Shown here piece by piece: positions 3,155 to 59,697 of a stretch of 64,000 bases of DNA. The stretch is taken from contig CAVYCR010000001.1 of assembly GCA_963767115.1 (NCBI GenBank), positions 66,430-130,429 on the forward strand, read 5' to 3'. This DNA comes from Candidatus Kaiserbacteria bacterium. Its GTDB lineage: Bacteria; Patescibacteriota; Minisyncoccia; Phycocordibacterales; UBA2100. The number at the start of each line of letters is the position of its first letter. Position 1 is the stretch's first letter. The notes beneath the pieces were generated by a model. That model ran no database searches. It was not told the DNA's origin and worked only from the letters and a program-made list of their open reading frames with translations. The position numbers were made by a program, and so were the translations under genes.

Positions 3155-4864
3155 ATGGCAACCCAGTTCAACGAGAAAAAGTCCGAGGAGCGCATGAAGG
3201 AGCTACGTATGCGCGAGGAAGAACAGCTCGCCGAGATGCTCTCCGGCAAGTACGGCGTCGAATACGTCGACCTCACGACCAAGTCGATCGACACCGACGC
3301 CTTGCGCCTCGTCGGCGAAGCAGAGGCGCGGCAGGTCGAGATCGCATGCTTCCACAAGCTCAACAAAATGCTCTTCGTCGCTATGCGCGCGCCCGAGCGG
3401 CCGGATGCGCTCACCGCCGTGCAAAACCTCGAGCAGCTCGGCTATGTCGTGCGGCGCTTCATCGTTTCGCGTGCCTCGCTCGAGCACGCGTGGGACCGCT
3501 ATCACGACATCTCCTACGCGACCGAGACCGAAGCGGGCATCCTCACGCTCTCCAACGACACGATCAAAGAGATGCTCAAGAAGCTCAAGACCATGCACGA
3601 CGTGCGAAACGAAGATCGATCTCGTACCGTCTGGCTCCAAAGACACGCACCGCATCTCGCGCGTCCTCGAGATCATCATGGCCGGCGCGCTTTCTCTCGG
3701 CGCATCTGACATCCACCTCGAGCCGGAAGAGAGTGGCGTGCGCATGCGCTACCGCCTCGACGGCGTCTTGGTCGAGGTCGTCGATGTTTGACGATCCGAC
3801 CTACGCGCTCGATCTCATCGCGCCTCAAGCTTCTCTCGGGCCTCAAGCTCAACATCAAAAACGCCGCGCAAGACGGCCGCTTCTCGATCGTCGTCGGCGG
3901 CAAAGAGATCGAGATTCGTACCATCGATCTTGCCTGGCGCTTACGCCGAGACGATCGTCATGCGTGTCCTCGATCCGACGACGATCGCGCTTCCCATGGA
4001 GGCGCTCGGCTTCGACAAATACCTCATGGAACTCTTCCAGCACGAGATCGCGAAGCCCAACGGCATGATCCTCAACACCGGGCCGACCGGCTCCGGCAAG
4101 ACGACGACACTCTACGCCTTCTTGCGACCAAGTATCGACGCCTGACATCAAGGTCGTCACCATCGAGGACCCGATCGAATACCACCTCAACGGCGTCGTG
4201 CAGACGCAAGTGTCCAAGGATTACACCTTCGCGCTCGGGCTTCGCTCGACACTGCGCCAAGACCCCGACGTGATCATGGTCGGCGAGATCCGCGACGCCG
4301 AAGTCGCATCGACCGCGGTGCAGGCATCGCTTACCGGTCACCTCGTCTTCTCGACACTCCACACCAACGACGCAGCTGGCACCTTCCCGCGACTTGTCGA
4401 CATGGGCGTCTCGCCGGACATCATGGCGGCGGCGCTTACCGTCTGCGATGGCGCAGCGCCTCGTGCGCCGCCTGTGTCCGAACTGCCGCACCGAAGCCCC
4501 GATCACCGGCGCCGACAAAGTCTACGATGGACCGCTTGCTGCAAAACATCCCGCACGCCGATGAGCTCCCGCAGAACCGCGACACGATGTGGCTCCCCAA
4601 AGGCTGTGAGAAATGCGGCGGCCTCGGCTACAAGGGCCGCATCGCGGTCGTCGAGGTCGTCCTCATGGATCACAACATCGAAAACGTGATACGTACGAGC
4701 TCCTCGCGAGCGCGAGATCTGGAAGGCGGCGCGTCCGCAAAACATCCGCCGCATGGCGCAAGACGGCGCCGTCAAAATCCTGCAAGGCGTCACTGCCATC
4801 GAAGAACTCGCGCCGCGTCGTCGACCTCGATGACGAGGTGATGCTCGAGGGTATCAACGGATAA
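3155..4864 (+). pseudogene. pilB: Type IV pilus assembly / type II secretion ATPase (PilB/GspE family), reading frame broken at 8 or more points as sequenced
   Basis: Homologous text runs through successive track ORFs in different frames (2591..3709, 3405..3791, 3788..4273, 3930..4145, 4198..4689, 4527..4841, 4613..4864). It includes ASDIHLEPEE, Walker [56 protein letters not shown] and the Cys cluster CPNC...[12 protein letters not shown]. Start ATG 3155 (MATQFNEKK). Segment frames (coordinate mod 3) step 2,0,(1),2,0,1,2,0,1,2. Confidence 0.85.
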
Positions 4865-4941
4865 CCACAGTGTTGATAAGGAAGTTTGCTTCTGGAGTGT
4901 GCGGCGTATACTGACGCTATATTCGATAAATAGAAACAATT

Positions 4942-5175
4942 ATGACTGATGAACATGCAAATCCTCCCGCCCAAGACGGGGATGTTACCCAGACTTCGCA
5001 CGTAGACGCGCCGGCTGCTGCGCCACAGGCCACGCCGGCAGCTTCAGTCGGTGGTACGGTCCACAACGCCCAACAGGGTATCTCCAACACCATGCAAGAA
5101 GTAGAAAAGCTCGAGACAAGCGAGTCACAAGTAGGCAGCATCGTGAACGGCGTGAAAGGACTCTTCCATCTCTAG
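4942..5175 (+). CDS. Small hypothetical protein (77 aa), low-complexity Ala/Pro-rich N-terminal half
   Basis: It is the only ORF in an otherwise empty 300 nt. There is no recognisable motif, so coding status is uncertain. Confidence 0.25.
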   Translation: MTDEHANPPAQDGDVTQTSHVDAPAAAPQATPAASVGGTVHNAQQGISNTMQEVEKLETSESQVGSIVNGVKGLFHL

Positions 5176-5273
5176 GAGACTGACTGCCAAAACCCTAAGG
5201 AGAAATACGCCACGCAATTCACTTTTAGGAAGGTTGCAAATCCTATTGGAGTGATACGATTGAATATAGAAAA

Positions 5274-5418
5274 GACGGAGGCGCGATTCTCTTAGCAACA
5301 CTTTCAATATAGAAAGGTGCGCCGGGATCTAAGGATAGCAGCAGTAGAAACGCCGTGAAGCAGGTCACCGCTGCGTCCTCGAAAAAGGCACGCTTGCTAA
5401 GAGAATCGCGCCCCCGTC
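5274..5418. repeat. Long inverted repeat: 25-bp stem (one mismatch) enclosing 95 nt, in the 420-nt spacer upstream of ruvB
   Basis: 5274-5298 (gacggaggcgcgattctcttagcaa) is the reverse complement of 5394-5418 (ttgctaagagaatcgcgcccccgtc), except for A5279 opposite C5413. Confidence 0.8.
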
Positions 5419-5596
5419 GGCACGCCGAAGTCATGTTTGTCATGACGAAGGCGGCTGTCGGAGTATCGATTCACTAAGATGTAAAAATCGCCCCTGAAGG
5501 GACGACTATCGGCAGTGTATCATAAAGAAAATATAAGTCAAGCTCCCCGTTCGCCTCGCCGCACACGCGACCATGTGCCCGGCAAGCCGGCATTTT

Positions 5597-6610: not shown

Positions 6611-6669
6611 TTCATAAAATGTTTGATTGACGTACAATTTAGGATGAGTTAGATTTCTGCGAGTAACAA

Positions 6670-8265: not shown

Positions 8266-11200
8266 TCACGGGAACGAGGTCGGATTGATGGTATTGAGAT
8301 ACGTATGGATCAGGCTGTAGAAGTTGGCTTGCTGCGTCGGGGTGAGGTGCCCGCCGGTGTAGACCGCAGCTATGCCATGAGCCAAGGTCGACTGGAAGTG
8401 GTTGCTGTTTAAGGTGTCGTCGAAGCCCTGGGTACCGGTCCCTATCGAAGATCCGTTCTTATATACCGTAAGAGTTGCTGACTGCGCGCCGTTGCGATCG
8501 ATCGTATACCAGCCTGCGCCGGTTGCTCCGCCGGTAATGGTGACCCCGTTGTTCGCCGCCGCATTCAAGCCGCCGTAGACATTCGTATCCCCGAAGTCCT
8601 GATTTCCGCTGAGGTTGAACTGCGCGTTGGTGGTAGAGGCGATCGCTCCCTGCAGGATGCTTCCGGTGCTCCAGCCGCCGATGCTCGATGCGGTCGAGGT
8701 CATCGCTACGGCGTTGGTAGCCGCCCAGCCGAGGTCTATATATCTCGCATCGAAGACTGAGTTATTGAAGCCCGTATCGGTCGTAAAGGTCGGAGCTCCG
8801 ACCAGCGTCGCGCTATACGTGCCATTGGTGAGGTTGGTGAGCGCCGTCGCGGAATTCTGGGTCGCGAAGACATAGAAGATGTCGAGCTGCGACCAGACGC
8901 CGTCGGAAACGAGGGCGCAGATGAGATTCTTGTATGCGTTCTGATGGGTGGTGTCGACCGTGACGCGCGCGAGGAAGGACGCCGATTGCGTGCAGCCGCC
9001 GCCGAACGAGAGCGTCGAGGTCGCAAACGTGTTGGAATTCGATGATTCATTGCCGCTGGTGTCGACTGCGGTCACGACATAGGAGTAGCTCGTCGAGGCA
9101 GTGAGGCCGGTATCGTCGTAATGTATCAGCGTCGTCGAGGCGACCTTCGAGCTGTTACGGTAGATGTTGTAGTACGCGACGGCGACATTGTCGGTCGAGG
9201 ATGCCCACGAGAGATTGATGTCGTTGAACGCCGGTGTGCCGGTAAGGCTCGACGGCGACGACGGCGGCGTCGTGTCAGGAGTCGCGGTGGTAAAGGTTGT
9301 ATCGCTCGAGGTCGCGGTATTGCCGAAGCTGTCTGCCGAGACGACCGCGTAGTGATAGAGCGTGGTCGGGGTGAGCCCGGTGAGCGAGATGGAGTGCGCG
9401 GTGAGGAGGGTCGCCGACGATGACGCGCTGCCGTAAGCGGTCGTCGTACCATAGACGACCTTCGAGCTCGCGGCAGTATTCGTGTTCCACGTAACTGTCG
9501 CGGTCGAGGTCGCGATAGAGCTCGCATTTATAGAAGTGATGACGGGCGGATTGTTCTGCACGGTGACCGTCTCGCTCGATGTCGCGTAGAGGCCGGAGTT
9601 GTCCTTGGCGACCGCATAGAGCGTATGTGTGCCGTCGGAGACTCCCGTCGAATTCCAGGTGACGCTGTACGGCGAGGAGGTATCGGCCGCGCCGATGTTC
9701 GAGCCGTCGACTTCGAACTGCACTTGAGAGATCGTCCCGATACTATCAGATGCTGAGGCCGACACGGTGACAGCCGATCCTGAGACCGTGGCACCGCTGG
9801 AAGGTGCCGTGAGTGAGACTGCCGGACCGGAGACCGTAGGATCGGCATGAGGAGCGCTGATGAGACTGGTGAGGTCGGTAACCGCCTTATTGACTACCTG
9901 CACGTTGGCATAACGGACCGCTTCGTTTACAGAAATATCTCCGGGATAGCCGCGATAGATGCCTACTTTCCAATATCCGGCACCGGCGTTCCCGCTTGCA
10001 TTGGAGTTCGGGAAGAGCGTGCCGGTAGTCCCTGAGACGTTGACCACCTGGGTGCCGTTGATCCATACCTTGAGGTACGCGGACGAATTCGTCGTCGTGC
10101 CGACCTCCTGCTCGATGAACATGTGGTACCACTGGCCTCGGGTAATAGCGCTCGGCGAGGTGTAGATAGCGGACGGATTGCTTGCTCCGTCTTCGTCGAT
10201 TTCCCAGTGGTCCGTAGGAGTGAGATCGAACGCGACCGATGCGGGCGGGTAGCCGCCGATACCGTAATGGTACTGGCCCATGGTGTTCCAGGAAGCGTTG
10301 GTGACGAGCGCTCCCGGCTCGACCATGACTGAGTAGCTGATCTGCACTACATCGGAGCCCGGCCACGCTGTATTTGCGGCTCCATCGAGCTCCGAGCGCT
10401 CGGCACCGCTCGTGTTGTCGATATCCCACGGATGCACCTCGAAGCGATACATGTCACCCAACGCACCGGTCGTCGTTGACACGTTCGTCGCGTGCCACAT
10501 CGAGTAGCTGTCCCACGCGCTTTCAGTGAAGTATTGGACTCCATTGACGGTCTCGGTCGTATTGGCATACGGGCCGACGCCGCCGAAGTCGCCGTAATAG
10601 ATCGCGTTCCAATCGAAGCCGTCGCTCGTCGTCTGCGCGGTCGACGGGACGGTGATACCCCAGTAGCTGTCTTCATTGGCTGAGATCGTATCGCGCGCGG
10701 TCTGTTTGGCCGGATAGAGGATGATCTCGGCGATATCGCCGTTGCCCATGTTCGAGCCGCCGGTCGCGTCCATGCCGACGTAGAGTCCGGTCGCGTTGGG
10801 ATACGTTACCGTCGCGCCGCCGCCGTTGGCGAAGATCGTCTGGCCGGCAGCATGGATGCTTTGGTCGGAGCTGTTCACATCGTACTGGTAGAGCTCGTTT
10901 CTGAATATCTGGCCGAAGTCTTCCGGATTAGAGGTGTTGTTCTGATATCCGGATCCGTTCACGTAGACCTGGTTCTGCAAGCTGTCCGCCTCGCCGGCGC
11001 TCCCGATGAGACCCCAATCGACATCCGTCCAATCGCTGGTGGACGTATGCGGATACCCGATGACCCAGAAGTCTCCGTTACTCTCCGTTGCCGAGTACTT
11101 GCCGATCTTCGCGACGACGAACGCATCGACAGCTGAGGTCTTGTATGCGGCATTGTCGGCTGCCTTCATGCCGCAGGTCGTGCACCACTGGGCAAGCGGC

Positions 11201-14200
11201 TGGCCGCTATTGGATCCGGAAGCGACGTACTGCGGCTGGTCGCCGTTGGTGCTCTGCGTCAGGTTGTTGCTGTTGCCGGATTGGTCATAGAAGGTGGTGA
11301 CATAGCAGGTGGTCGAAGCGCAGAAAGATGCTGCCGTCGTCGTATCAAAATTACCGTTGGCGAGGAAGCCGATGTTGTCAGTCGTGTTGTCGGAAGCGCG
11401 GCGCAGCTGTACCGCATTGCCAGCGTAGGAACTGCTCAGCTTACGGAAGGAATATGCAGCAGTGGCGCCCGTCCAGCTATCGAGCGGTGCGACATATCCC
11501 AAACTGCCGCCGGAGGATGCCGTCGTAAAGTTCTGGTCGGATGAGGTGGCGATATTCCCCTGACCATCAGCGGATACGACTGCAAAGTGGTAGAGCGTCG
11601 AAGTGGCGAGGCCCGCGAGCGATATCACATGCGAGGTGACAAGCGAAGTAGACGAGGACACTGAGCCGTACGAGGTGGTTGTGCCGTAGACGACCTTTGA
11701 TGATGCGGGGTTGTTGGTCGTCCATGTGATGCTGGCATTCGTCTGGCTGGGGCTTCCGGAAGATATGGAGGAAATGACCGGGGCGCTGTTCTCGACATTG
11801 ACTGTGATTGAGGAGGTCGCGTAATTGCCTGAGGTGTCGACAGCAACCGCGGAAAGAGTATGCGAGCCGTCAGAGACGCCGGTGGAATTCCAGGTCGTCG
11901 AGTACGGAGAACTACTATCGGCCGCACCAATATTGGTGCCGTCGACCTTGAATTGCACACTCGCGACCGCCACGTTGTCTGACGATGTTGCCGAGAGGGT
12001 GACCGAAGAACCGGAGACACTCGCACCGCTTGACGGAGCAGTTAGGGACACGGTGGGTGGGATGGTATCGCCGCCGGCAGTGCTCGGCCATGTAGGCTGT
12101 GAACTCACGAGCCCCGAGTACTTGCCCGCGGTGGTGCTGATCATCTCGTTGCCGACCTGATACACAATGTCGGATGGATTGGCAACGCCCTTGTAGGGAA
12201 TCCACGGGACATCTCCAGTGTAAACACCGTTTTTGAGCGAAAGCGTCGATGGGGAGGAACTGAATATATTGCCGCTTTGATTGCATTGTTCGGTAAGCGT
12301 GCCGCCAACTGGACCGAGGTAGATCTGCTCGGAGCTTGAACTGCCGTTGTAATAGAGTTCATACTCGATGGCGTAGGTAGTACTCGTCGAGATATCGATA
12401 ACCGAGCCGCAGTCAGTACCATTAATGAAGGCCCGCATGGTCGGTTGACCGGCGCTGGTGCGGTCCATGCAGTCGATCCCGCCGCCATAATAGAGCTGGC
12501 CGACAATGCACCATTCGCCACCCTGCGAGACCATGTCGGGAATACTTTTGAATTTGAACTCGTAAAAGATACTCAGGTGCGTCCCTGGTGAATATGATGT
12601 CGCATCGAGTATTTCGCTTCTTGGGTGCTGCGTAATGCCGACATCGGAATCACCTCCGTTCACCACGAATTGCCACAGAGTCGGACAGTTCGTCCCAGCG
12701 GTACAGCCTGAAGTGTTGAGATTGGTCGCATAGGCTTCGCTCGGTCCTTCGGAGTGGATATAGCCGCCCGTTTGCGGCTGCCAGGTAATACCATTAGCAT
12801 CGGTCACTTGATAGTCGCCCAAAGCGGACGCGAAGCTGCCAGCAGATCCGCCCTCACCACCCGGATACGGCGGCAATAATTCCGGGCGCAGCGTATATCC
12901 GTCGGTCGTGCTCTGGTTCGTCGCAACTGTCGCGATCGGCGTAATGCCGTACTGCGAGTCGAGCCAGCCGTCGACGGTCGTACGATTGGCAGCCGTCTGG
13001 TTGACCATCGCCATTTGATGGAAGCAATTGTTGGACGTATTTTCAGAACCATTCGTGTTGCTGAAGAGCGTCGTTCCGACATTGGTCGAATAGGTGACGT
13101 TTGAACCGGACTGCGCAGCCGAAAGTTGCGTGGTGTCGTAGATAAGCTCTTCCGTGTAAGAGTCGACATCCCATACGGCCCAGCGTCCGCGCATGTATTG
13201 ATCGAGGTAACCGACTGTGCCTCCTGCCACGCCGGCGTTTTTCACCATGACCGGATCGCTTGCGGTACCGTCGATGTCTGCAGGCGAGAGCGAGAAGGCC
13301 CAGTACGCGCTTGAATCGAAGGTGTTGCTCGCGGGCCCCGCGACGATCCACGGACCACCGATGACGGAATTGGTGAGCTCGAACGTATCGCCGGTCTCAT
13401 TGAGTTGATTATTGAAGTTCTGGAGCAAGGAAAGGCTCGTACTTCCGCCAGTTGCCGTACCAGCGTATTGCTCCCACCACAGTGCGCTTGGATGGGTCAC
13501 GTCTTCCACACCGGGCTGTCCCGGGTTCCAGACACCGCCGCTCGAAGTCGAGAATCCCTGGAAGACCGAAGCGACGCCACTCTCTGCAATGTTCGTAATG
13601 TTGTGATTGCTCGTAGAGACGTTGCCGGTAATAGTGAAATACGGAAGATTTGGCTGCCAGCCGTTCCAGTCGAGCGTGCCCGGGTATGCGACGGCGAAGA
13701 GTTCAACCTTAGAGGTCGACTGGCTTGCGGAATAGGCATTGCTCATCGTGGAGTTTGGCTGCGCACAGACTTCCAAGAGACCATCGGCTCCTTCGGCGAT
13801 CTGAGGCATTTTTGCGAGCGTGTTCTGATTCCAGTCGTCCTCATGTCCTTCTACGGCACCAACGGTATCGTAGAGGGTCTTCACGTAACAGTACGTTCCC
13901 GAGCAGAATGAATTGAATTGGCTCACGCTTGCCGCGTGGGTGCTCGGGTCGAAGCCAATCGTCGTCGTCGCGTTGTCACTCGTGCGCTCGATGACAGCGA
14001 AGTTACCATTGTACGAGGACGCTGGTGAATACGCGCTCCAGCCGTCGGTCCATCCTTCGGACGGGTACTGATCAATTATGCCATTGTAGGTAACTCCCCC
14101 ACTCGCAGCCGTCGTAAACGTCTGATCAGACGACGTCGCCGTCGTCCCCGTCGCATCTGCAGAAACGACCGCGAAGTGGTACGTGGTATTGGCGGTGAGT

Positions 14201-23501: not shown

Positions 23502-24857
23502 TTATGCGTGGATCAGCGTCCGGATATGATCGAGTTCTTGTTCGAGTGCGTTGTTTCTTTTGACTTCTTCTTTTATTTTCTCGCATGAGTGGATGACAGT
23601 CGTATGGTCACGACCACCGAGCTTCTCCCCGATCGAAGGATACGAGACGTTGAATTCTTCGCGCAGGATATACATGATGATTTGTCGCGGTTTCACCACC
23701 TCCTTCTTACGCGTCTTTTCGTAGATGCTCTTCTCGGCAATATCATAGTATTGCGCGATACGTCGCACGACCTCGTCGACCGAGACGCCCTTGTTTGGCT
23801 TTATATTGTGCTTGATCAGCATTTTACATCGGAGAGCGAGATCGATCTTGCCCTTGAGTTGTGATTTGCAGACGATCATGTTGAGTACCCCCTCAAGCTC
23901 GCGGATATTGCCGCGCACCGACTCGGCGATGAATTGCACGATGTCTTCAGGAATCGAAAAACCGTGTTTCTCGAGCTTCGCTTGGATGATCGCAGTACGC
24001 GATTCGACATCAGGTTCGGGGATCTCCGCGATCATGCCGCCCGAGAAGCGGCCCTTGATACGATCTTCGAAGCCCGGTAGAAGCATCGGGTGCTTATCAG
24101 AGGAGAAAACGATTTGTTTGTTGTTGTCGCGCAGCGCATTGAAGAGATGGAAGAGCTCTTCCTGCGTCTTCTCGGTGTTGGCGATAAATTGCACGTCGTC
24201 CATGATGAGGACGTCGTACTGGCGATATTGATTTTTGAAATTATTGGCGTTACCAGCGCGTACCGAGTTGATGTAATCCACTGCAAACTTTTCACTGGTG
24301 ACGTACAAGACCTTTTTGTTGGTGTGGCTTTTCTTGAAGTAATTCCCGATCGCTTGGATGAGGTGAGTCTTCCCATGGCCGGTCGACCCGTAGATGAAAA
24401 GCGGGTTGTATGTGGCGCCAGGATGATCTATGACGGCCTTCGCAGCAGCGTGTGCGAGCTGGTTGAAGGGACCGACGACAAAAGTATCGAAGGTGTAGCG
24501 TGGGTTGAGGTTGTCGCGCTTGTCGATATAGAGCGACTGGAGGTCGAAGGAAGCATTTTCATTCTCCTGAACACGCGGGCTCCGGCGCTCGGGTGATACG
24601 ACGGGCGCGCGGTGGATGCTATAATCGACAGCTCTAATGGTGTTGTCGAGATTGCGAAGTGTCGAGAGAATAAGCTTGTGGTGCTTGTCCATCAGCCATT
24701 CCTTCACTATTTTCGAGGGAACGGCGACTTGTACCGATCCCCCTGCGACATCCCTGTTTACGATATCTGTATTTCGAAACCAGGTGCGGAAGCTTGTTTC
24801 TGAAGTGCCGAGTTCGATTTGAACCAGCGCGTTTTGCCACAATTCTCTGTTAGTCAT
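23502..24857 (-). CDS. dnaA: Chromosomal replication initiator protein DnaA
   Basis: ORF 23502..24872. AAA+ Walker A IYGSTGHGKTHL, Walker B VLIMDDVQF, C-terminal DNA-binding signature GGRDHTTVIHS. The ATG at 24857 is preferred because a TATAAT hexamer (24876..24871, minus strand) overlaps the alternative ATG at 24872. Confidence 0.93.
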   Translation of the reverse strand: MTNRELWQNALVQIELGTSETSFRTWFRNTDIVNRDVAGGSVQVAVPSKIVKEWLMDKHHKLILSTLRNLDNTIRAVDYSIHRAPVVSPERRSPRVQENENASFDLQSLYIDKRDNLNPRYTFDTFVVGPFNQLAHAAAKAVIDHPGATYNPLFIYGSTGHGKTHLIQAIGNYFKKSHTNKKVLYVTSEKFAVDYINSVRAGNANNFKNQYRQYDVLIMDDVQFIANTEKTQEELFHLFNALRDNNKQIVFSSDKHPMLLPGFEDRIKGRFSGGMIAEIPEPDVESRTAIIQAKLEKHGFSIPEDIVQFIAESVRGNIRELEGVLNMIVCKSQLKGKIDLALRCKMLIKHNIKPNKGVSVDEVVRRIAQYYDIAEKSIYEKTRKKEVVKPRQIIMYILREEFNVSYPSIGEKLGGRDHTTVIHSCEKIKEEVKRNNALEQELDHIRTLIHA

Positions 24858-25289: not shown

Positions 25290-25295
25290 GCGCCC

Positions 25296-27748: not shown

Positions 27749-28985
27749 CTATTGTGTCACATTCAAGACCCAGAGCGATTCGTCGGTGGCGTTTTGGAAT
27801 GCGATGTAGGTTCCCGTAGGATCCATCACGGGGTTTTGTACGTCGAGTGAGACTCCGTCGGAGCTCGGCGAATACACTAGTGTCTCCTGTCCGCTCGAGA
27901 GATCTATCTGCCACCAATTGTCTGAAGTACTGACAAGCCCTTGATACCATTCTTGCAAGAAGTCGCCTGTGGGCGCGGAAGTCGGCACGGCACAATACAC
28001 TATGGTGCTCGCTCCCGGCATCCAGACGCATTTGTCGGCAATTGTCTGAATCGTGGCGGTCGTCGGTGTCGTTGTGGCTCGAGTGAAAAGCGATAGAGAC
28101 GAACCATTGGAGCTTCCATATACCAAAGCAGAACCCCCTGGCTGTGCGTTCAAGGTGAGTCCTTGTATGTCGTGCATCAAGGGCGTAAGGGTGCTGTTTG
28201 CGCCGAGTGTATAGGCATATCCCGGCACGCCGTCTTGCGGACTTTCAAGCAAGATTATGCGATTGTCGGAGAGATAGGATGCATCCCAACTACCCACGAG
28301 CGAGTAAAAAACATGCGTGCTCTTGGTGCCGCTCCAGTTCTGGCTATAGCCGTCGACGCCGCCCTTGGGGCTCGCGGTCAGATAGAAGATCGCGTCCGTC
28401 TTCGGGTTCATTGCGACCTGCAGGATATTCGGCTGCATGTATGATCCATACAGCGTGCCGTTCGTAGTCGATGTCGCGTTGGTACTGGTCGCGATGGTGC
28501 CGAGGAAGGTCGTCACATTGCCGGCTCTCGTCGATCGAACGCTCGATGATACTTCCGTCATAGCTCACATATGCCTGATAAATCTTCGGCATGAGTGTGT
28601 CAGTAAGCCTTGAAGTAAGACGACTTGCGGGTTCGGCATTGAAGACATATCCGTTGGCGCGCTCCACATAATAGAGATCTGGCGTACTCGAGCTCATTAT
28701 GAAGCCCATACCCGAGGTCGGTGCGGGGTCTACTTCCCAGAGCTTGGAGGATGAGGTGGCGAGCGTCGGCGAAGAAGCGGCGGAGATACCGGAGCCCACC
28801 AGTTGGTTTTGTGGGGTGCTGCCGCCTGTCCCGTTGAAATCCGGCGTCGAAGTGCCGAAGCTCGTCGCGACACTCGTCGATGAGCCAGCCTTTGAATTGA
28901 TATAGAAATACCATCCGGCAAGAGCACCGATGATCAGTACAATGATGCCGACGAGCACGAATCTGATGATGGTTGAGATGCTCAT
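27749..28985 (-). pseudogene. N-terminally anchored beta-propeller-like (TolB/PD40-like) protein, single frameshift near 28525 as sequenced
   Basis: ORFs 28344..28985 (TM segment IIRFVLVGIIVLIIGALAGWYFY) and 27749..28561 overlap. Sensible text switches frame at ...YVSYDGSIIERSIDES / AGNVTTFLGTIATS.... The upstream ORF then continues as Arg-rich junk. The C-terminal part has DPTGTYIAFQN-type propeller repeats. Confidence 0.6.
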
Positions 28986-30436: not shown

Positions 30437-33112
30437 GCGTTGCCTTGAAGTGCGTTGCTGTTAAGGCCTCCGCCGACGGGTGCAGTATCGGCGCCGGGAG
30501 CTGCAAAGGCCGCGGCCGGTGCAGCGGCAGCCGGTATCGGCGCCGGCCGTTCAGGAGGTGCGAGCTCAGCCGAGGCGATCTCCCCTTCCGGCCCGCCTTC
30601 GTTGACCGCGGCGAGTTCCTGCTTCGCCTTTTTGATCGCAAGGATCTGCGACGGGTCGGAGGTGATGATCTGGTCTTCGGTGTACGAGGCGATGACCTTG
30701 ATGCGCGACGTGCTTCAAGCCCGCGAAGAAGATCCCCTCCCCTACATCGGATTCGAGCAGCAGATATTTTTCCTCGTCGGAGAGTTTGAAGGTCTGCTGC
30801 ACGAGGTCGACCGAGGTCGGCGATTGGCGCAAAAGAGTTGAATCGACGAGTTGGTGATCATCGGGATGCCGTAGGGCGAGTTGAGGAAGTCGGAGACGTC
30901 CTGCGTGATCGTCGAGATGCCGAGGTAGTATTTGCGGCCGCGCTTCGCGATACCGAAGAGGAACGAAGCCGTGTCTTCGGAGCGCATCATCCACCACGCC
31001 TCGTCGATGACGAGCAGGCGCTTGCGCAACTCTTTGCGCACGGGTTCCAGATGTGGTGCGTGATGATGTACATCGCGACCGGCTTGAGGTCGTCTTCCAT
31101 GTCGCGCACCGAGAAGACGACGAGCTTTTTGTTCATGTCGACGTTGGTCGGCCGGTTCATAAAGCCGCGACCACGTGCCTTTGGTGTATTTGCTCAGAGA
31201 CGCTGCACGAGCGATCTCGCTCCCTTCCATGCCGGAGAGCACGAGCTCGAAGTCGGAGAGAAGCGGCGGCTCGACTGAGCGCGAAGTTGGCGTCCGCGCG
31301 TGATGTCTTTGAGCGCGTATGTCTCGGTGATCGCACGGTCGATGATCGCGTCTTCTTCCGGCGTGAGGCCGCCGAGCATGATGCGGAAGAGGCCGACGAG
31401 CGTGATGATGTTGTTGCGCAAGACGTCCGAGGGCGCTTCGTCTTCGCGCGGGATCGGCAAGGTCGAAGGGATTGATGTGGTGCTCGGAGCGAAAGTGAAA
31501 TGTTGAAATAGCGGCCGCCGACCGTTTCGGCGAGATATTCGTATTCGCGTTCAGGGTCGATGACGATGACCTCGGTGTCGAACATGAGGGAGCGCAAGAT
31601 TTCGAGCTTGGTCGTGTAGCGATTTGCCCGCACCGGATTTGGCGAAAGTCACGGAGTTGTAGTTTTCGAGGCTAGAAGCTGATCAAAGAGGATCAGCGAC
31701 GAGTTGTGGCGGTTGATGCCGTAGAGGATGCCACGGTCGGAGGTGAGGTCGAAAGAGATGAACGGGAAGATCGAGGAGAGCGGCGCGGAATTGAGCTTGG
31801 TGTGCACGTCGAGCTCGTCGGTGCCGAGCGGCAGGACCGAGCGGAAGCCTTGTTCTTGTTGGAAAAGTGCCGGGCGGATGTAGACGAGACGGCTTTCGAG
31901 AATGCCGCGGATCTCGGTCTCGATCTTGTCGATCTCTTCGCGCGTAGTTGCCGTAGATCGTGAGGTAGAGGCCCACTTCGAAGATGCGCTCCTGCGCCTG
32001 TTGCAAGGAGTCGCGCAACTGCTCGAGGTCGCGAGTAGGCGGTGTCGAGCATCGGGTCGCGCACCATCCCCTTCTCTTCGCGCGTCGAGATCTGCGACTG
32101 CACCTCGGCGACTTTCTTCTGGAATTTGCGGAGCATCTCGTTGGTGTCCATCGGATGGATGAAGATCGAGATGTCGATCACTTTGTCCATGTTGATGATC
32201 GGCGCGAACCACCCCGTCGTGAGGAAGCGCGGATACGAGATGACGAAGAACGTGCGCGCGATCTTTCTCGCCCAGGTCGAGCTCGCGGGAATCGATCTTG
32301 AGCGCGTGCGGCGCGATCACGTCCTGCAGGTCGAGGACGCCGGTCTGGTAGATCTCCTCCGGCAGAACCGGCAACTCATGTTGAGGCTTTTCGGTCGGAT
32401 CTTTTCTTCTGAAGTAAGTAGTCGAGTAGTGCCATACGTTATTAGTTATTGCTTCAAGCGGCATCGGCTTGCCTTCTTCGCCCGGGTTGAACATCTTGTA
32501 GAGAAGCTCGATCGCTTCTTCGGTGCCGAGCTGTACGGTGCGCACGCCCGTGCGCACGAGGCCTTGCTGCACGATCGAGATGCGCTGTTCAAGCTGGGAG
32601 ACTTGCTCTTCGAAAGTCTTGTTGGCGTTCGTTCGGCTCGGTCTTCTTGTTGCCGAACGGCAGCATTTTGCCGACGCCGCTCTTGCTGATGCGAGACTGA
32701 AGCGAATACGGCACGACGACGAAGAAATTCTTGGTCATGATGTTGGCGGCCTCGGTGAAGCTCTTGATGAACTCGATGTATTCGCGGATCTGCACGCGCA
32801 TGAGGTCGTCGAGCTGCTCCTTGTATTGCGCTTCGAGCGTCGCGATATACGGGCGGATGTCGAGCATGCGCGATTGCACGAAGATCTGACACGGAGAAAT
32901 CAAGCGAGTTGAGGAAATTCTGGAATTGCACGATGAAGGCGGTCTGCTCGTCCTCGCTCTTGAGTGCGAAGTTGATCGATGAGGCGAGGAGGATCGCGCG
33001 CAGGCTGCCGTCTTTGAGGATGACGACGCCGTCACGCACTTCGCGAGACCGGCACGAATTCCTGCGTGGAGCGGCTGTTGGATCGTGGTGTTGATGGACG
33101 TTGGGTAGGCAT
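30433..33112 (-). pseudogene. virB4: VirB4/TraC/PrgJ-type type IV secretion ATPase, reading frame broken at a dozen or more points as sequenced
   Basis: Homologous text hops through minus-strand ORFs 32446..33039, 32589..33035, 31649..32572, 31693..32190, 31683..32018, 31157..31633, 31194..31460, 30742..31242 and 30566..30997. It includes VRDGVVILKDGSLRAILLASSINFALKSEDEQ, Walker A FAKSGAGKS (read by hand at about 31640), EVIVIDPEREYEYL, Walker B LLVIDEAWWMM and RKYYLGISTITQDVSDF. ATG at 33112, TGA at 30433-30435. Confidence 0.85.
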
Positions 33113-33118
33113 AGATGG

Positions 33119-33614
33119 TTAGCGCACGAGCGCGTCGCGCGCGGTCCTGATGGGCTTCATGGCGTCATAGGCGAGCGCGGTCGCTCTCGTCAGCGGAGCC
33201 CGCGGCAATGCGCTCCTTGATGTCGAGACTCCAAGCGAGGTCATGCAGACGGCTCTCTGAGAGACTTCGGGATGTAGAGATCAGGTTGCTCGAGAGTCTG
33301 TGCAGTCACAACCGACTTTTTCTCCGTCGGGTTTGCGCTCGTTGTTCCACAAGTAGAGCCGTGGTTGGAGGACGAAGTAGAAACCGTTCTCAAGCGCGAG
33401 AATGAACGGCCGGCCGTTGTACTCAAAGAAAGCGAGCGCTGCTGCGAAGGCCTACGACGATCATGATGAGCGGTACTGCGACGAAGAGCGGGAGGATGCG
33501 CCACAAGACATAAGACAAGCCACCACCGCCGCCGATCTAGATGAATTGTCTGAAGGTGAGCGGGCCGAAAATCTTGTCCTCGACCTCGATGAATTGAGGA
33601 ACTTGGAACTGCAT
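33119..33614 (-). pseudogene. PrgI-family (VirB3-like) small membrane protein, with one in-frame TAG and several frameshifts as sequenced
   Basis: Hand translation from the ATG at 33614 gives MQFQVPQFIEVEDKIFGPLTFRQFI*IGGGGGLSYVLWRILPLFVAVPLIMIVVGL, then AAALAFFEYNGRPFILALENGFYFVLQPRLYLWNNERKP in the next frame, and so on. The N-terminal VPQFI-x-EDKI-GPLT-RQF signature is typical of PrgI-like proteins encoded just upstream of VirB4 in Gram-positive-type systems. TATACT lies 8 nt upstream of the ATG. Confidence 0.6.
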
Positions 33615-47175: not shown

Positions 47176-47185
47176 AGCTTCCCTG

Positions 47186-47644: not shown

Positions 47645-47684
47645 TGTTTGAATATTATCATTACAAATATAGGTGACTTTGAGC

Positions 47685-49211: not shown

Positions 49212-49291
49212 TGCCTGCAGCGTAGGGCCGCAGAGAAGATCCGAGACCCCATCGGATTAGTGTTCATAATGAGGTTAGTATAGCACGAGAT

Positions 49292-50135: not shown

Positions 50136-50141
50136 ATGCGC

Positions 50142-50498
50142 TTACTTTTTGATATTTGTCCGAGCTGCGGGATTGGCGGCAAGGCGCTCGTACGGGATTT
50201 GCTCGCCTGTCTCCTCGTCGAGGCCGTAGGTGCCCTTGCCCATCTTCTCGAGCGCATCGTCGATCTCTCTTTTGCGCTCTATAAAGGTCTGCTCGAGCGG
50301 GACGTTGGTCACCAACTCTTCGATTTGCGACGCGACGTCGTTGGGATCGGATTCTTCGCCGGTGAAGCCCTTGGACGAACCTTCCCACTCCCCGCCTTCT
50401 TTCTCGCCGTGTTCATTGAGCTCTTCTTCGATAGTGGCGCGCTCGGCCTCGAGCTGGTCGCGCAGATCTTGCAATTGTTCTTCGGTGAGATGCTTCAT
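50142..50498 (-). CDS. DksA/TraR-like protein lacking the zinc-finger cysteines
   Basis: Acidic coiled-coil N-terminal part, then GTYGLDEETGEQIPYERLAANPAART, which matches the G-YG-C-x2-C-G-x-I-x3-RL-x2-P-x3-C-x2-C layout but has no Cys residues. Confidence 0.55.
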   Translation of the reverse strand: MKHLTEEQLQDLRDQLEAERATIEEELNEHGEKEGGEWEGSSKGFTGEESDPNDVASQIEELVTNVPLEQTFIERKREIDDALEKMGKGTYGLDEETGEQIPYERLAANPAARTNIKK

Positions 50499-50510
50499 AC
50501 TCTAATGGTA

Positions 50511-51863
50511 TCAGAGATTGCCATGTGCCTGCAAACGGCTCAGCACTTCTGCAAAGGTATTCGGACTCTGCGCAATCACGAGGAGGTCGGGCGTGGGGAA
50601 TGAGTAATACAGGACAATGGTGCCGGAATCATCCTTGAGCTCGCGCACGTCGTAGTTGCGCATGACGGCGTCTGCAAAAGTGCGCGCAGTGGGCAGGCCG
50701 TTTGCGCCGGTGGTGAGTGTGGGCACGGAAGTGAAAATCGGTGAAAGATCAGTGTTCATCTGCGGCTCCCAAGCAAGCATGCCTGCGAAGGCGAGGTCGT
50801 AGTTGGTCACGGGGATGACTAAGACCGGTGCGTTGACATCGACCGTATGCGCGCCGAAGAAAAAAGAATCGCCTAAGCCTTGCGTGAGTTGCGAGGGCGG
50901 CGAAATCCCGAGCGCTGCGAAAAATTCAGAAAGCGTCGCAGGTCCGGTTGTCGATATACTATCGGCCGACGTCGCTGATATGGTCGGGATAATCTGAGTG
51001 ATCGATCCGACGGGGCCTAGGTTTTGGGTGAGGGCGTGTGCGAGTGCAGCCTTGAGTATGGCCGGACTCGTGTTGTCGATCGGGACCGTCACAGTCTGCT
51101 CGGCGAAAATAAGTGAAGGGTATGTGGCCGACGTGGTAGACGGGTGTTTATTTTCCACGACTGTGACGCCGTAGAGGGCACCACCGCCGAGAAAGATTAG
51201 CAATATCGATACGAAGACAATGGCCGCGGTGCGGTGTTTTCGACCGCGCTCTCCGACTGTCTCGAGCGGCATGATAGGATCGGGCCGTTTCTTGTCGGCC
51301 TCGAGTGCGGCCGCTTTCACGAGCGAGATCTTCTTGCGGCGGACAATGTCTTGGAGGTCGTCTTTGAGGGTATGTGAAGCGACTACTGTGGGGCGTGCTT
51401 CTGGTTCGCTCGGCGCCTGAGGTACCGATTGCTTGAGCGCCTCGTCTATGTTGGGGACAGCGATCGTTGCGGAAGGTGGCCTCGTATCAGCAGTTCCTTT
51501 GAAGTCGCGACGTTCCGGCAGCTTCACGCTATGCAGAATACTAGCGATGTCGTTGCTTATCTCGCCGCTGTGCGGCGCGTCGTCAGTCTGAAGCTTCAGG
51601 CGTTGAATACGCTCGAATTCCGTTTCGTCACCACGCGGCTCACTGGTACTTGCAGAGAGTGCACCTGAAGTCGTTGGTGCACTTGGCTTCGGGATGGAAA
51701 CTTCAGCAGACGGTACTGCCGGAGTAGCCGATGGTGCTATCGGATTCATTTCAATATCGAAGCTTTCCGCAGGCGCAGGTGGGTGTGGAGTATTAGATCC
51801 TGCGTCGGGGCCGTTCGTCGCCATTGGTACTTGCGTTTCGTCTGCCATGATCATCACTACCAC
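50511..51863 (-). CDS. Hypothetical single-pass membrane protein (about 450 aa), disordered N-terminal half
   Basis: TM segment TAAIVFVSILLIFLGGGALYGVTVV at mid-protein. The start codon is uncertain, with several GTG/ATG codons at 51863-51846. Confidence 0.6.
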   Translation of the reverse strand: MVVMIMADETQVPMATNGPDAGSNTPHPPAPAESFDIEMNPIAPSATPAVPSAEVSIPKPSAPTTSGALSASTSEPRGDETEFERIQRLKLQTDDAPHSGEISNDIASILHSVKLPERRDFKGTADTRPPSATIAVPNIDEALKQSVPQAPSEPEARPTVVASHTLKDDLQDIVRRKKISLVKAAALEADKKRPDPIMPLETVGERGRKHRTAAIVFVSILLIFLGGGALYGVTVVENKHPSTTSATYPSLIFAEQTVTVPIDNTSPAILKAALAHALTQNLGPVGSITQIIPTISATSADSISTTGPATLSEFFAALGISPPSQLTQGLGDSFFFGAHTVDVNAPVLVIPVTNYDLAFAGMLAWEPQMNTDLSPIFTSVPTLTTGANGLPTARTFADAVMRNYDVRELKDDSGTIVLYYSFPTPDLLVIAQSPNTFAEVLSRLQAHGNL

Positions 51864-54017
51864 TCTCCGGTTTCAGGCCCTTGCGTGCGGCGAAATCCGG
51901 ATCTGCGGCTTTGATAGAGAGATTATAGCGCCCTTTCTCATCGATTTCCTTCAATGACCACAGGCACGATGTCGCCGATCTGCACGGCATCGGAGATTTT
52001 GCCGATCCGGAACGGTGCGACTTCGGAGACATGCACGAGGCCGTCGTTGTTCGGGACCGATCTTTACGAATGCGCCGAAATCCATCATGCGCACGACAGG
52101 GCCTTCGAAGCGCTCGCCCACCATCGTAATTCGCGCGTGAGGTCGACGATCTCTTTGAGCGCGGCTTCTGCTGCGCCGTTCTTGCCGGTGATGAAGACCG
52201 AGCCGTCGTCTTCGATGGTGATGTCGTCGGCCTTCGTGCGCTCGCTGATGCCGTTGATCGTCTTGCCGCCGGGGCCGATGACGAGGCCGATCTGGTCGAC
52301 CTTGACCTTCGTCGTAAGAATTTTCGGCGCGCGCGGACGAGATGTCAGTCGCGGGGTTCGGCGATTTCTTTGGTGATGACTTCGAGGATCTGCATGCGCG
52401 CTTTCTTTGCTTGCGCGAATGCTTCCGCGAGCACGTTCAAGCGGCACGCCTTCGACTTTCACGTCCATTTGGACGGCGGTGACGCCTTCGTGACGTTCCT
52501 GCGACTTTGAAGTCCATGTCGCCATGGTGATCTTCGGGGCCTTGGATGTCGGTCAGAACTTTATAGATGCCTTTTTCGCGTCACGACATCATGCCCATCG
52601 CGATGCCAGCGACCGGGCGCGTGATCGGTACGCCCGCGTCCATGAGCGCGAGCGTGCCAGCGCAGACGCTCGCCATCGAGGTCGAGCCGTTCGACGCGAG
52701 CGATTCGGCGACGATGCGGATCGTGTACGGGAAGATCATCTTTGTCCGGCAAAACTGCGCGCAGCGCTTTTTCGGCGAGCGCACCGTGGCCGATCATGCG
52801 GCGGTTCATGCCGCCGACGCGTCCTGTCTCGCCGACACTGAAGGGCGGGAAGTTGTAATGGAGCATGAAGGTTTTCTTCGTCTCCTGGTATTCGATGGTG
52901 TCGAGCGAGCTGCGCGTCGCCCGGGCCGCCGAGCGTGAGCGCGGCAAGCACGTGCGTCGCGCCGCGATAGAAGATGCCGGCGCCGTGAATGACCGGCGAG
53001 ACACCGCCTGCCTGCGCTTCAGAGCGGACGGATTTCGTCCATGGCGCGGCCGTCGGCGCGGCGATTGTTATTGATCGCCTCCTCGTGGATGTATTCGTCG
53101 ATCTTATGTTCGTAGAAGGCGTCGAATTCGCCCGGCTTCAGCGTCGGGCAATTTCTCGGCCGCGGCCTTGATCCACTCGCTTTCAAGGCGCCCATGTTTT
53201 TCTTGCCGACATTGCCGTCGTTTGAGCCGAAGACTGCCGCTTCGAGTTTCGGCACGGCGATTTCCTTCCAAGCCGCTTCGATCTCCGCCGTGCCGGCCTT
53301 CGGGTTGAACTGCCTGCTTCGCATTGCCGCGCTCGGCGATGATCATGCTCTGCCATGCCTGCAATCTTTTCTATCTCTTGCGAGGCGAGCGCGAGGCCAT
53401 TGTTGAGGGTTGCTTCGGACACCTCCTTCGACGCCGACCTCGATCATGTTGATGAGGCCGTCTTTGCCGCAGGCGAGAAGGTCCATGTGTCGAGTCGGCT
53501 TCGTCGCGCTGGAGGTAATTCGGAATGACGATGAATGTCGTCCTTGCCCGCTTCCATGCCGATGCGCACCGCGGAGACCGGGCCGTTCCACGGGATGTCG
53601 GAGGTCGCGAGCGCGAGCGATGCGGCGTTGACCGCGAGCACGTCGGTGTCGTATTCTTCGATCGAAAGCACGGAGATGATGACCTGCACATCGCGCTTAA
53701 GTCCTTTCGGAAAAAGCGGCCGGATGGTGCGATCGACGATGCGGCCCGAGAGTACGGCCTCTTCGGACGGCCGGCCTTCGCGGCGCATGAATCGCGAGCC
53801 GAGGATCGCGCCAGCTGCATAAAACTTCTCCTCGTATTCGACGGAGAGCGGGAAATAATCGAGATTGCTCTCCTTGCTGCCCATCACTGCGGTCGCGAGG
53901 ACCACGCTGTTGCCGTAGCGAAGCAGTACCGAACCATTGGCCTGATCGGCCCAATCATTAAATTCTGCGGTTAATCGTTTTGCCTCCGATTTCGACGGAG
54001 TATTCTTTCTTTTCCAT
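51793..54017 (-). pseudogene. pnp: Polyribonucleotide nucleotidyltransferase (PNPase), reading frame broken at a dozen or more points as sequenced
   Basis: ATG at 54017 (MEKKEYSVEIGGKT...). Homologous text hops through ORFs 53444..53905, 53371..53820, 53343..53591, 53183..53422, 53104..53364, 53019..53324, 52561..53004, 52581..52784, 52085..52525 and 51793..52032. It includes [74 protein letters not shown], the KH motif GLVIGPGGKTINGISERT and the S1 region GLVHVSEVAPFRIGKISD. The 3' end is uncertain and overlaps the next gene. Confidence 0.85.
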
Positions 54018-54163: not shown

Positions 54164-54170
54164 CGTAGTA

Positions 54171-56680: not shown

Positions 56681-56684
56681 CCGC

Positions 56685-57287: not shown

Positions 57288-57293
57288 AAAATC

Positions 57294-57708: not shown

Positions 57709-57714
57709 GTGGGA

Positions 57715-57743
57715 ATGATAGCACATTCCCACATGCTTTGCAA
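57715..57743 (-). promoter_or_regulatory. Sigma-70-like promoter of rpsO (TTGCAA-17 nt-TATCAT) ending 6 nt before the ATG
   Basis: On the minus strand, TTGCAA is at 57743..57738 and TATCAT at 57720..57715, with the ATG at 57708. A 9-bp inverted repeat (57709-57717 / 57724-57732) brackets the -10 element. Confidence 0.55.
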
Positions 57744-57761
57744 GATGGCTGTCTTAGGCCG

Positions 57762-58331: not shown

Positions 58332-58378
58332 CAAGCAAGCATACCTCTCTTTACCCAAAAAGCGCAAGGTTTCGGGGG

Positions 58379-58387
58379 TGTGGATAA
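58379..58387. promoter_or_regulatory. Second perfect DnaA-box 9-mer (tgtggataa)
   Basis: Read directly. It ends 13 nt before the long inverted repeat arm starting at 58401, the same spacing as at 24942-24950 / 24964. Confidence 0.4.
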
Positions 58388-58400
58388 TGTGGTAAAAAAT

Positions 58401-58518
58401 GAGGCGAACCCTGCGCACAGCGTGTTTTGGGGTCTTTGCAGCGCGGTGGCGCGAAACAGAGTTATTTTCTAGCAAGAAAATAACGACCCCAAAACACGCT
58501 GTGCGCAGGGTTCGCCTC
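58401..58518. repeat. Long inverted repeat (34-bp perfect stem, 50-nt interior) immediately upstream of the rarA -10 box
   Basis: 58401-58434 (gaggcgaaccctgcgcacagcgtgttttggggtc) is the exact reverse complement of 58485-58518. The arm resembles that at 44768-44796 (shared cgaaccctg...ttttgg). The interior contains its own 9-bp hairpin (gttattttc/gaaaataac). Confidence 0.85.
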
Positions 58519-58535
58519 GAGCGTATACTCACCGT

Positions 58536-59697
58536 ATGGAACCCCTTGCTTCACAGATAAGACCCAAAACACTCGACGAATTCGTAGGGCAGGAGCATAT
58601 TACCGGGCCCGGCAAGCCCCTGCGGGTCGCGATCGAGAAGAAAGAGCTCTTCTCATTTATGTTGTGGGGACCGCCCGGCTCCGGCAAGACGACGCTCGCC
58701 CGCATCTATGCCAATGCAGTCGGTGCGGATTTCCATGAGCTCTCCGCGGTCGAAGCCGGCAAGGACGACATTAGGAAGAGTCATAGGCGACTCGCGGCAG
58801 CTTGCTCTCACAGCAAGCCGAAAGTACTTTTCGTCGACGAGATCCACCGTTTCAACAAAGCACAGCAGGATTTCTTCCTGCCGTTCGTCGAGCGCGGCGA
58901 CATCACGCTCATGGGCGCCACGACCGAAAATCCGAGCTTCGAGGTCATCGCTCCCCTGCTTTCTCGCTGCCGCGTCTTCGTGCTTGAACGAGCACAGCGA
59001 AGCTGACATGGAGAAGATCATCGATCGTTTGCAGAAGATGGCCAAGATAGAGTAGCGAAGGCTGCGTGCGAATGGCTCGTGCGGATGGCGCAGGGCGACG
59101 CCCGCCAAGCGATCACCACGCTCGAGACCGCGCAGAAGCTTTACGGCAAGATCACCGTCGATACGCTCAAGGAAGCGATCCAATCGAAGTATCTCCGTTA
59201 CGACAAGAAGGGCGAGGAGCACTACAATATCATCAGTGCATTCATCAAAAGCATGCGCGCCTCGCAGCCGGATGCAGCGCTCTATTATCTCGCGCGGATG
59301 GTCGAGAGCCGGCGAAGACCCCGTCTTCATCGCGCGCCGCATGGTGGTCTTCGCGTCGGAAGACATTGGCCTCGCGACGCCGACTGCGCTCGTCGTGGCG
59401 AACGCCGTCTTCGAGGCAGTGCAATCGATCGGCTATCCAGAATGCGCGATCAATCTCAGCCACGGTGTCGCCTATCTTGCTATGTGCAAGAAGAGTCGTG
59501 CTTCGCACGACGCCTACTTTGAAGCACTCGATGATGTGAAAAAGTACGGCACGCTCCTGGTGCCGATGAAGATCAGGAATGCCCCGACCAAGCTCATGAA
59601 AGACATCGGCTATCACGAAGGTTACAAGCTCTACGACAAAGAATCGTACCTGCCGGAGAAGCTGAAGAAGCGGAAGTATTTGAAGGGTGATAAATAA
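58536..59697 (+). pseudogene. rarA: Replication-associated recombination protein A (RarA/MgsA AAA+ ATPase), 3 or more uncompensated frameshifts as sequenced
   Basis: ORFs 58536..59006, 58708..59055, 59079..59522 and 59236..59697 carry successive parts: [89 protein letters not shown] and RNAPTKLMKDIGYHEGYKLYD. TATACT (58524-58529) lies 6 nt before the ATG. Confidence 0.85.

Follow-up and report, generated by a model that had tools for sequence, protein, structure and literature searches.

The analysed window is a stretch of 64,000 nucleotides from a metagenome-assembled genome of the Patescibacteria (Paceibacteria/Kaiserbacteria-like), i.e., of a candidate-phyla-radiation bacterium. Among its genes are those for the type IV pilus ATPase PilB, a PrgI-like protein with an adjoining VirB4-like region, polynucleotide phosphorylase (Pnp), and RarA/MgsA, all of which are broken by clustered frameshifts as sequenced. 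The replication gene dnaA carries a fifth patch. The coordinates of these features, with the individual extra and missing bases, are collected in Table 1.

Table 1 Frameshifted genes, patches, and extra or missing bases in the window
Feature	Position	Strand	Description
pilB (type IV pilus ATPase)	3155..4864	+	Very probably a blended-allele block; 12 extra bases, 9 net +1 shifts
pilB extra bases	3615, 3624, 3633-3634, 3782, 3810, 3923, 4128, 4445, 4524, 4707, 4810	+	From alignments
dnaA, fifth patch	23643..24348	-	25 substitutions, -1 at 23821, +1 at 23843 (Logan contig L172)
Isolated +1 frameshift	28520..28530	-	411-aa hypothetical gene 27749-28985; context CGAGAG[C]CGGC as at rarA 59309
virB4-like region	30437..33110	-	Two ORFs in relatives: ~220-aa protein and ~650-aa TraG-P-loop ATPase
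virB4 extra bases, part 1	33046, 32893, ~32640, 32263, 32032, 31946, 31672-31671, 31620	-	
virB4 extra bases, part 2	31490, 31458, 31297, 31280, 31216, 31195-31194, 31167, 30702	-	
virB4 deletions	31044, 30836	-	
prgI-like gene	33120..33614	-	Extra bases 33451, 33329, 33268, 33175; hybrid TAG stop codon at 33538
pnp (polynucleotide phosphorylase)	51793..54017	-	17 insertion events, one deletion ~53179
pnp extra bases, part 1	53976, 53538, 53489, 53431, 53362, 53312, 53141, 53020, 52906	-	
pnp extra bases, part 2	52736, 52491, 52438, 52349, 52338, 52126-52125, 52052, 51952	-	
rarA/mgsA	58536..59697	+	Extra bases 58780, 58788, 58814, 58989, 59309; missing base 59049/59050

Distribution and polarity of the indels

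We have mapped the frame switches with a codon-usage HMM, which makes no use of orthologues. Repeated switching is confined to 3153-4810, 30435-33031, 51850-53969, and 58564-59668, and these clusters are the four blocks of pilB, prgI plus the two-gene virB4 region, pnp, and rarA that the initial annotation had pointed out. One further switch, a single one, is placed by the HMM at ~28523, in agreement with the isolated shift that had been noticed at about 28525.

For pilB, a frameshift-aware protein-to-DNA alignment against 5 orthologues, together with a nucleotide alignment, gives 9 net +1 shifts and not a single deletion. Actually, removal of 9 bases leaves pilB open over 566 aa with no internal stop, and the repaired PilB shows 87% identity to its nearest database orthologue. 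The custom alignment was used in place of tblastn alone, which had returned misleading long off-frame matches for this G+C-rich gene. We also note that TCGAT-like strings are frequent in pilB.

In the neighbouring pair of blocks on the minus strand, prgI has 4 insertions, the N-terminal gene of the virB4-like region has 3, and its ATPase gene has 13 insertion events as well as the two deletions. Near 31670 the frame steps in the reverse direction, which had been put down to two nearby insertions; two extra bases are indeed found there, at 31672-31671. The same explanation had been offered for the reverse step at ~59050 in rarA, but this one is a real 1-nt deletion. Besides, rarA had been described as broken every 150-250 nt, but it holds 6 indels (5 insertions and 1 deletion), three of which fall within 35 nt (58780, 58788, 58814), and 30 substitutions between 58721 and 59229. 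The insertion events of pnp comprise 16 single insertions and one 2-nt insertion. Overall, ~54 insertion events are counted against 5 deletions. The insertion polarity is thus as described before, though it is not complete, with ~92% of the events being insertions and 5 being true deletions.

dnaA had been counted among the intact genes. Its two indels cancel each other, so the ORF is open with 6 residues out of frame, but the patch is of the same kind as those in the blocks.

In relatives, the genes examined are whole. Among the PilB homologues listed, all 120 have full-length sequences of 538-710 aa, the 80 pnp loci retained from other genomes each match nearly the whole query, the 5 translated pnp orthologues all have an open frame, and the virB4 genes are intact in those relatives whose frames were examined.

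Comparison with Logan contigs

We have compared the window with 8 Logan contigs of run ERR11630394, which comes from the same population as the deposited genome and possibly from the same library; ~31 kb of the window is covered. Outside the blocks, the two differ by 6 substitutions and no indels over ~26.6 kb. Inside the blocks, where ~4.4 kb is covered, there are 139 substitutions, the window has 22 bases extra and 2 missing, and the divergence reaches ~3% of sites. None of the 24 covered block indels occurs in the Logan contigs, and all covered Logan reading frames in the blocks are open. PilB is uninterrupted over residues 1-305 (L087), with the differences between the pilB copies spanning 3232 to 4816; PrgI is intact with 163 aa (L089, PF12666); and the 400-aa frame of rarA is open and contains MgsA_C, AAA_assoc_2, and AAA domains (L006). 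In pnp, the base at 53976 is missing from the contig (L005), which stops inside the gene at 53831. For the gaps in coverage (pilB 4077-4710, virB4 30760-32774, and pnp 51793-53830), the indels were deduced from orthologues of just 69-85% nucleotide identity.

The Logan contigs, which are de Bruijn contigs, break inside the blocks at 4076, 4711, 30759, 32775, and 53831. These breaks fit branching from k-mers common to relatives, and they also fit the view that assembly of the affected genes is difficult in this sample. Since de Bruijn contigs may switch lineage within conserved genes, we present the Logan allele as an unbroken one, not necessarily as the organism's own.

Outside the blocks, a +1 shift in a methyltransferase gene had been reported at the G8 run 49919-49926, and we have found it again. 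It is exactly reproduced in a Logan contig (L171), where it serves as a positive control; because of its presence there, it is an event of a different kind from the block indels. Neither the repaired 280-aa methyltransferase nor the repaired 411-aa protein of the gene with the isolated shift has an exact match in the protein collection searched.

Inserted bases and foreign-looking alleles

Against the near-identical Logan contigs, 21 inserted bases can be placed exactly. G or C makes up 17 of them and A only 3, which does not agree with the earlier description of the inserted base as an A 5' of GC. As had been stated, the coding strands of rarA (at 59303) and of the 27749-28985 gene (at 28520) do share the 11-mer CGAGAGCCGGC, and the surplus base in CGAGAG[C]CGGC is the C. 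Homopolymer-type insertions are depleted (4 of 21, where 10.4 would be expected; P = 0.004), and new CpG dinucleotides appear at 8 of 21 insertions (3.0 expected).

By eye, the insertions use all three codon slots with no clear signal, so we relied on tests of synonymous doubling and of orthologue alleles instead. Reading the insertion as a doubled synonymous SNP fits 14 of the 21 cases, compared with 8.3 by chance (P = 0.012). For pnp and virB4, the orthologues carry the inserted base in the neighbouring column with a frequency that averages 0.30, while the null is 0.139 +/- 0.027 and none of 3000 simulations reached 0.30. Examples of such apparent superposition are GCC + GGC -> GGCC, CGT + AAG -> AAGT, GTG + GTC -> GTCG, and GT[C][T]. 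The CpG excess and the 11-mer shared by two insertion sites may point to some influence of the sequence context, which simple superposition does not predict. A shared motif or a methylation-type context at the insertions was considered and rejected: counted over all events as pairs sharing at least 8 nt, context recurrence is non-significant (6 pairs vs 3.1 expected, P = 0.11).

The substitutions in the blocks have the appearance of alleles from a related lineage. Codon position 3 holds 83 of 114 substitutions (73%), and synonymous changes between window and Logan outnumber non-synonymous ones by 81 to 33. Changes from A/T to G/C number 66, and those in the reverse direction 27. At 31 of 36 tested sites the window has the base that is commoner among ~75 orthologous loci, and at 13 of 17 differing positions of PilB it has the commoner orthologue residue. 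GC3 is 0.79 in the Logan pilB segment, 0.85 in the window segment, and 0.50 to 0.73 in the flanking genes; as a guide to the native allele, this measure was set aside as weakly informative.

The TAG stop codon at 33538 deserves separate description. At this codon Logan has TGG, and 73 orthologous loci have TAC (36), TAT (30), or TTT/TTC (7). Judged by these codons, the TAG is a hybrid of TGG and TAC/TAT that exists in neither parent allele. Taking the central 198 aa of repaired PilB as the query, we also searched the protein database for near-identical PilB fragments that the Logan assembly might have yielded from either lineage. The best hit has 83% identity, so no clean contig of a foreign lineage was recovered.

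Origin of the frameshifts

From the above analyses, we consider it very probable that the frameshifts arose as an artefact in the consensus of the deposited assembly, through the blending of alleles, and do not belong to the DNA of the organism. The artefact would touch at least five genes, all of them very conserved (pilB, prgI/virB4, pnp, rarA, and dnaA), and the organism almost certainly has all of them intact. The reading as an artefact draws its support from the Logan comparison, in which the flanks match, the 24 covered indels are absent, and the frames are open, and also from the foreign-looking substitutions and the hybrid stop codon. This bears out the preference of the initial annotation for a non-biological corruption, such as patching or polishing with lower-quality or mixed-strain data, over pseudogenes.

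As to how it may have arisen, one or more co-occurring relatives, richer in G+C, would have been blended with the organism's own allele while the contig consensus was built. At most sites in the blocks where the alleles differ, the window has the foreign base. At a minority of them, both alleles would have been kept next to each other, with one base gained. A base would usually beat a gap during a step of this kind, so that nearly all errors would be insertions, and they would appear only where foreign sequence can be aligned, i.e., in the most conserved genes. Candidate steps include inter-genome repeat collapse by a long-read assembler, a polishing round that used cross-mapped reads, and merging of contigs. 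The isolated shift at 28520..28530, which lies outside the Logan coverage, may be part of the same artefact. Related species and strains in a metagenome often have long near-identical stretches in common (PMC9262707). A chimeric or collapsed metagenome consensus likewise concerns only the most conserved genes, with alleles pulled toward relatives and with breaks in short-k-mer contigs. To our knowledge, side-by-side retention of alleles giving one-base insertions has not been described for a collapsed consensus.

Plain long-read sequencing or consensus errors in poorly covered stretches, without any mixing of lineages, are an alternative. Long-read assemblies are well known to suffer from indel frameshifts; those detected by IDEEL-type protein-length tests likewise break conserved genes in the consensus and not in the organism, and are likewise revealed by orthologues or a second data set (PMC9262707). 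In the window itself, the G8 run is a homopolymer frameshift of the classic type, and the identical 11-mer context at two insertions also speaks for this reading. However, long-read indel errors are described as occurring mainly in homopolymers, whereas the block insertions shun them, and the homopolymer character holds only for the G8 run. The events here are concentrated in five conserved genes, are insertions in the large majority, and come with foreign-looking substitutions, whose density, third-position bias, and mostly synonymous nature are not what random error would give. The inserted bases match orthologue alleles of the adjacent column, and the recurrence of contexts is, as given above, non-significant. 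Overall, we regard unmixed long-read error as very unlikely.

The broken genes might instead be real pseudogenes, decayed copies in a sub-population whose co-existing intact strain is represented by Logan. Candidate-phyla-radiation bacteria commonly undergo genome reduction, the genuine-looking substitutions between window and Logan imply at least two alleles in the environment, and one in-frame stop is present. On the other hand, gene decay in bacteria is usually said to favour deletions, which is opposite to the 54:5 bias toward insertions, and pilB becomes fully open once the extra bases are taken out. The substitutions are mainly synonymous, the only stop is made up from two sense codons, the Logan assembly has none of the indels within its coverage, and the copies of relatives are intact. 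Decay would also have to strike both dnaA and pnp, yet the ~26.6 kb of flanks are nearly free of differences and have no indels. Pseudogenes are, in our judgement, even less likely than plain long-read error.

More generally, frameshifted alleles that are real in a sub-population would call for a localised process, biased toward insertions and toward G+C, that acts on few conserved genes. We hold this to be extremely improbable; within it, possible options are an error-prone repair that follows recombination with diverged relatives, and +1 recoding on a large scale that keeps the genes functional. If the genes were recoded, the extra bases would be real, and would be skipped through +1 ribosomal frameshifting or cut out of the transcript. 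The monotonic +1 steps of the frame and the perfectly kept coding sequence between the shifts agree with this, and prfB-type +1 frameshifting and mitochondrial or ciliate +1 recoding likewise have single extra bases in conserved frames. Unlike those systems, the shift sites here have no conserved slippery or stimulatory motif, nor any other motif in common. The sites are found in none of the relatives examined and are missing from Logan contigs with essentially identical flanks. Moreover, deletions occur as well, and the compensated pair of indels in dnaA would be senseless for recoding, which leaves recoding scarcely conceivable.

Under the preferred reading as an assembly artefact, the biological weight of the frameshifts is small, since intact copies of the affected genes are almost certainly kept by the organism. 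For users of the data they do matter. Annotators would misscore essential genes, and genes for the pilus or for secretion, as pseudogenes, and phylogenies or diversity measures based on these genes would use hybrids pulled to the family consensus. As the case of dnaA shows, patches of this type can hide within frames that appear intact. For other metagenome-assembled genomes, clustered +1 insertions outside homopolymers, together with a patch of third-position substitutions and hybrid codons, can be used as a flag.

Frame disruption in the conserved genes

In the three-frame translations, homologous text moves from frame to frame along the affected genes, as the initial annotation had described. 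We trained a codon-usage HMM on the long ORFs of the window, without orthologues; it shows repeated frame switches only in pilB, prgI/virB4, pnp and rarA (the blocks below), plus a single further switch (see the table). The indels of each gene have been counted from nucleotide alignments and from a protein-to-DNA alignment that allows for frameshifts; in the central stretches of pilB, virB4 and pnp, the calls lean on orthologues. Overall, there are ~54 insertion events versus 5 deletions. Therefore, both the clustering and the insertion polarity noticed before are real and far beyond chance. Once nine bases are removed, pilB reads as one open frame of 566 aa, free of internal stops. The reverse step in rarA, earlier explained by two nearby insertions, is a true deletion instead.

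Coordinates (window positions) and indels of the features analysed
Feature	Position	Strand	HMM frame switches	Base-change tally	Insertion events	Deletions
pilB	3155-4864		3153-4810	3200-4864	11 (12 nt, 9 net +1 shifts)	0
prgI + virB4	30433-33614		30435-33031	30480-33600		
prgI		minus			4	0
virB4, both genes	30437-33110					
virB4, N-terminal gene					3	0
virB4, ATPase gene					13 (15 nt)	2 (31044, 30836)
pnp	51793-54017		51850-53969	53831-54017	17 (16 single, one 2-nt)	1 (~53179)
rarA	58536-59697		58564-59668	58700-59320	5	1 (59049/59050)
dnaA patch	23643-24348	minus			1 (23843)	1 (23821)
Hypothetical protein gene	27749-28985					
Lone shift in this gene	28520-28530	minus	~28523 (single)			
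Methyltransferase gene	49292-50135	minus				
G8 run in this gene	49919-49926					
3,217-aa ORF	8266-17919	minus				

Comparison with a second assembly

Several window proteins also occur in a second assembly of the same population, namely that of run ERR11630394 in Logan. Eight of its contigs (L005, L006, L087-L090, L171, L172) were compared, which together span ~31 kb of window sequence. Over the ~26.6 kb of this that lie outside the blocks, only 6 substitutions and no indels separate the two assemblies. Within the 3,665 nt of the four blocks that are covered, the window shows 114 substitutions, 21 extra bases and 1 missing base relative to Logan, where the reading frames are open (PilB residues 1–305, PrgI of 163 aa, RarA of 400 aa). 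Overall, the analysis supports the non-biological interpretation proposed earlier, and the observation behind it was largely right.

As a positive control, contig L171 is 100% identical to the window over 46845-50661, including the frameshift at the G8 run (C8 on the plus strand), and therefore Logan does show frameshifts that are present in the reads. This +1 shift, correctly recognised before, lies in the gene of a 280-aa SAM-dependent methyltransferase (CMAS/Methyltransf_11) and, unlike the block frameshifts, is unchanged in Logan; the alternatives are a genuine frameshift or phase-variable tract, and a homopolymer error of the reads themselves. For the blocks, it is proven that the Logan allele is unbroken, while its native status falls short of proof, since de Bruijn contigs can switch lineage. 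In addition, Logan contigs end inside the affected genes (at 4076, 4711, 30759, 32775 and 53831), the behaviour expected of a de Bruijn graph at k-mers common to related genomes; this suggests that other genomes of the sample have k-mers in common with these genes.

The comparison with L172 has also revealed a fifth blended patch, in dnaA, which had been regarded as intact. Besides its two indels, the patch carries 25 substitutions, and the frame stays open with six residues out of frame (GKIDLALRCKML in the window versus GKIISLSDVKML in Logan). The phenomenon thus extends beyond the genes that are visibly broken, and blended patches can hide in open frames.

Origin of the substitutions and insertions

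The block substitutions are not noise. They concentrate at codon position 3 (83/114), 81 are synonymous and 33 non-synonymous, and the changes from Logan to the window run from A/T to G/C in 66 cases and in reverse in 27. Where prgI and the N-terminal virB4 gene differ, the window mostly (31/36 sites) has the base that is more frequent among ~75 orthologous loci from unrelated metagenomes; in PilB, the same holds for the window residue at 13/17 differing positions (120 orthologues, among the matches listed). Taken together, the position-3 bias, the G/C direction and the orthologue-majority bases argue that the blocks carry alleles of at least one relative, apparently richer in G+C and more family-typical. 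A protein search with the 198-aa middle of PilB, translated after deletion of the extra bases, found no clean contig of such a lineage (best match 83% identity). At 33538 in prgI, the window has an in-frame TAG stop and Logan has TGG, and the orthologous codon is TAC, TAT, TTT or TTC (n = 73). This hybrid codon joins two sense codons, a sign of column-by-column blending.

Many insertions may likewise be two alleles written side by side. Some lie at third codon positions (GT[C][G], CT[C][G], CC[C][G], AC[C][A]), and candidate doubled alleles include [G][A]TC (Val/Ile), [T][G]CG (Ser/Ala) and [T][A]CG (Ser/Thr), for each of which the second allele occurs in orthologues; examples of superposition are GCC + GGC giving GGCC and CGT + AAG giving AAGT. 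This interpretation has the backing of three statistical tests. A doubled synonymous SNP is possible at 14 of the 21 exactly placed insertions (8.3 expected, P = 0.012). In pnp and virB4 (33 inserted bases), the mean orthologue frequency of the inserted base in the adjacent column is 0.30, versus a null of 0.139 ± 0.027, and 0/3000 simulations attained 0.30. The third test is the shortage of homopolymer-type insertions given below. The inserted base, formerly described as A, is G or C in 17/21 and A in only 3/21. New CpG dinucleotides arise at 8/21 insertions (3.0 expected), and this excess and the A/T to G/C bias exceed what simple allele superposition fully explains. The context CGAGAG[C]CGGC does recur identically on the coding strand at rarA 59309 and at the lone shift in the 411-aa hypothetical protein gene (+1, at 28524), as noted initially; across all events context recurrence is non-significant (P = 0.11).

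Frameshift errors are well documented in long-read assemblies, mostly in homopolymers (PMC9262707). Homopolymer-type insertions are rarer than chance here (4/21 versus 10.4 expected, P = 0.004), whereas ordinary sequencing error would produce an excess. Raw read error also does not match the insertion bias, the confinement of the blocks to conserved genes, or the foreign alleles alongside, by all of which the blocks differ from known long-read errors. Neither programmed frameshifting nor genuine pseudogenisation withstands the tests that define it. The pattern fits a blended consensus, and the block frameshifts are in all likelihood artefacts. Related organisms in metagenomes often share long near-identical stretches (PMC9262707). 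A consensus step favouring a base over a gap on mixed diverged haplotypes would yield the insertion polarity, and its effect would be limited to places to which foreign sequence aligns, namely the most conserved genes. The biological interest is low; the practical value lies in warning users of this genome, and in a block signature by which the same defect can be spotted in other assemblies.

Source organism and gene identities

The window is a segment of a 200,265-nt contig deposited at NCBI and ENA, and its organism is a member of Patescibacteria. Among the homologues listed, those nearest to PilB after repair bear the label Candidatus Paceibacterota or Kaiserbacteria, and the order polA, tsaE, pilB, ruvB is common to the window and relatives. 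Pfam checks have identified MshEN and T2SSE domains in PilB, PF12666 in PrgI, two RNase_PH, KH and S1 domains in PNPase, and a TraG-P-loop/AAA_10 match in the VirB4-type ATPase, and upheld RarA/MgsA. In relatives, "virB4" corresponds to two adjacent ORFs downstream of a prgI-like gene, one of ~220 aa without Pfam hit and the other a ~650-aa TraG-P-loop/AAA_10 ATPase; this split is seen in 5/5 relatives with ORFs listed (loci L091-L095). Elsewhere in the window, the 3,217-aa ORF is a single frame with strong GC skew.
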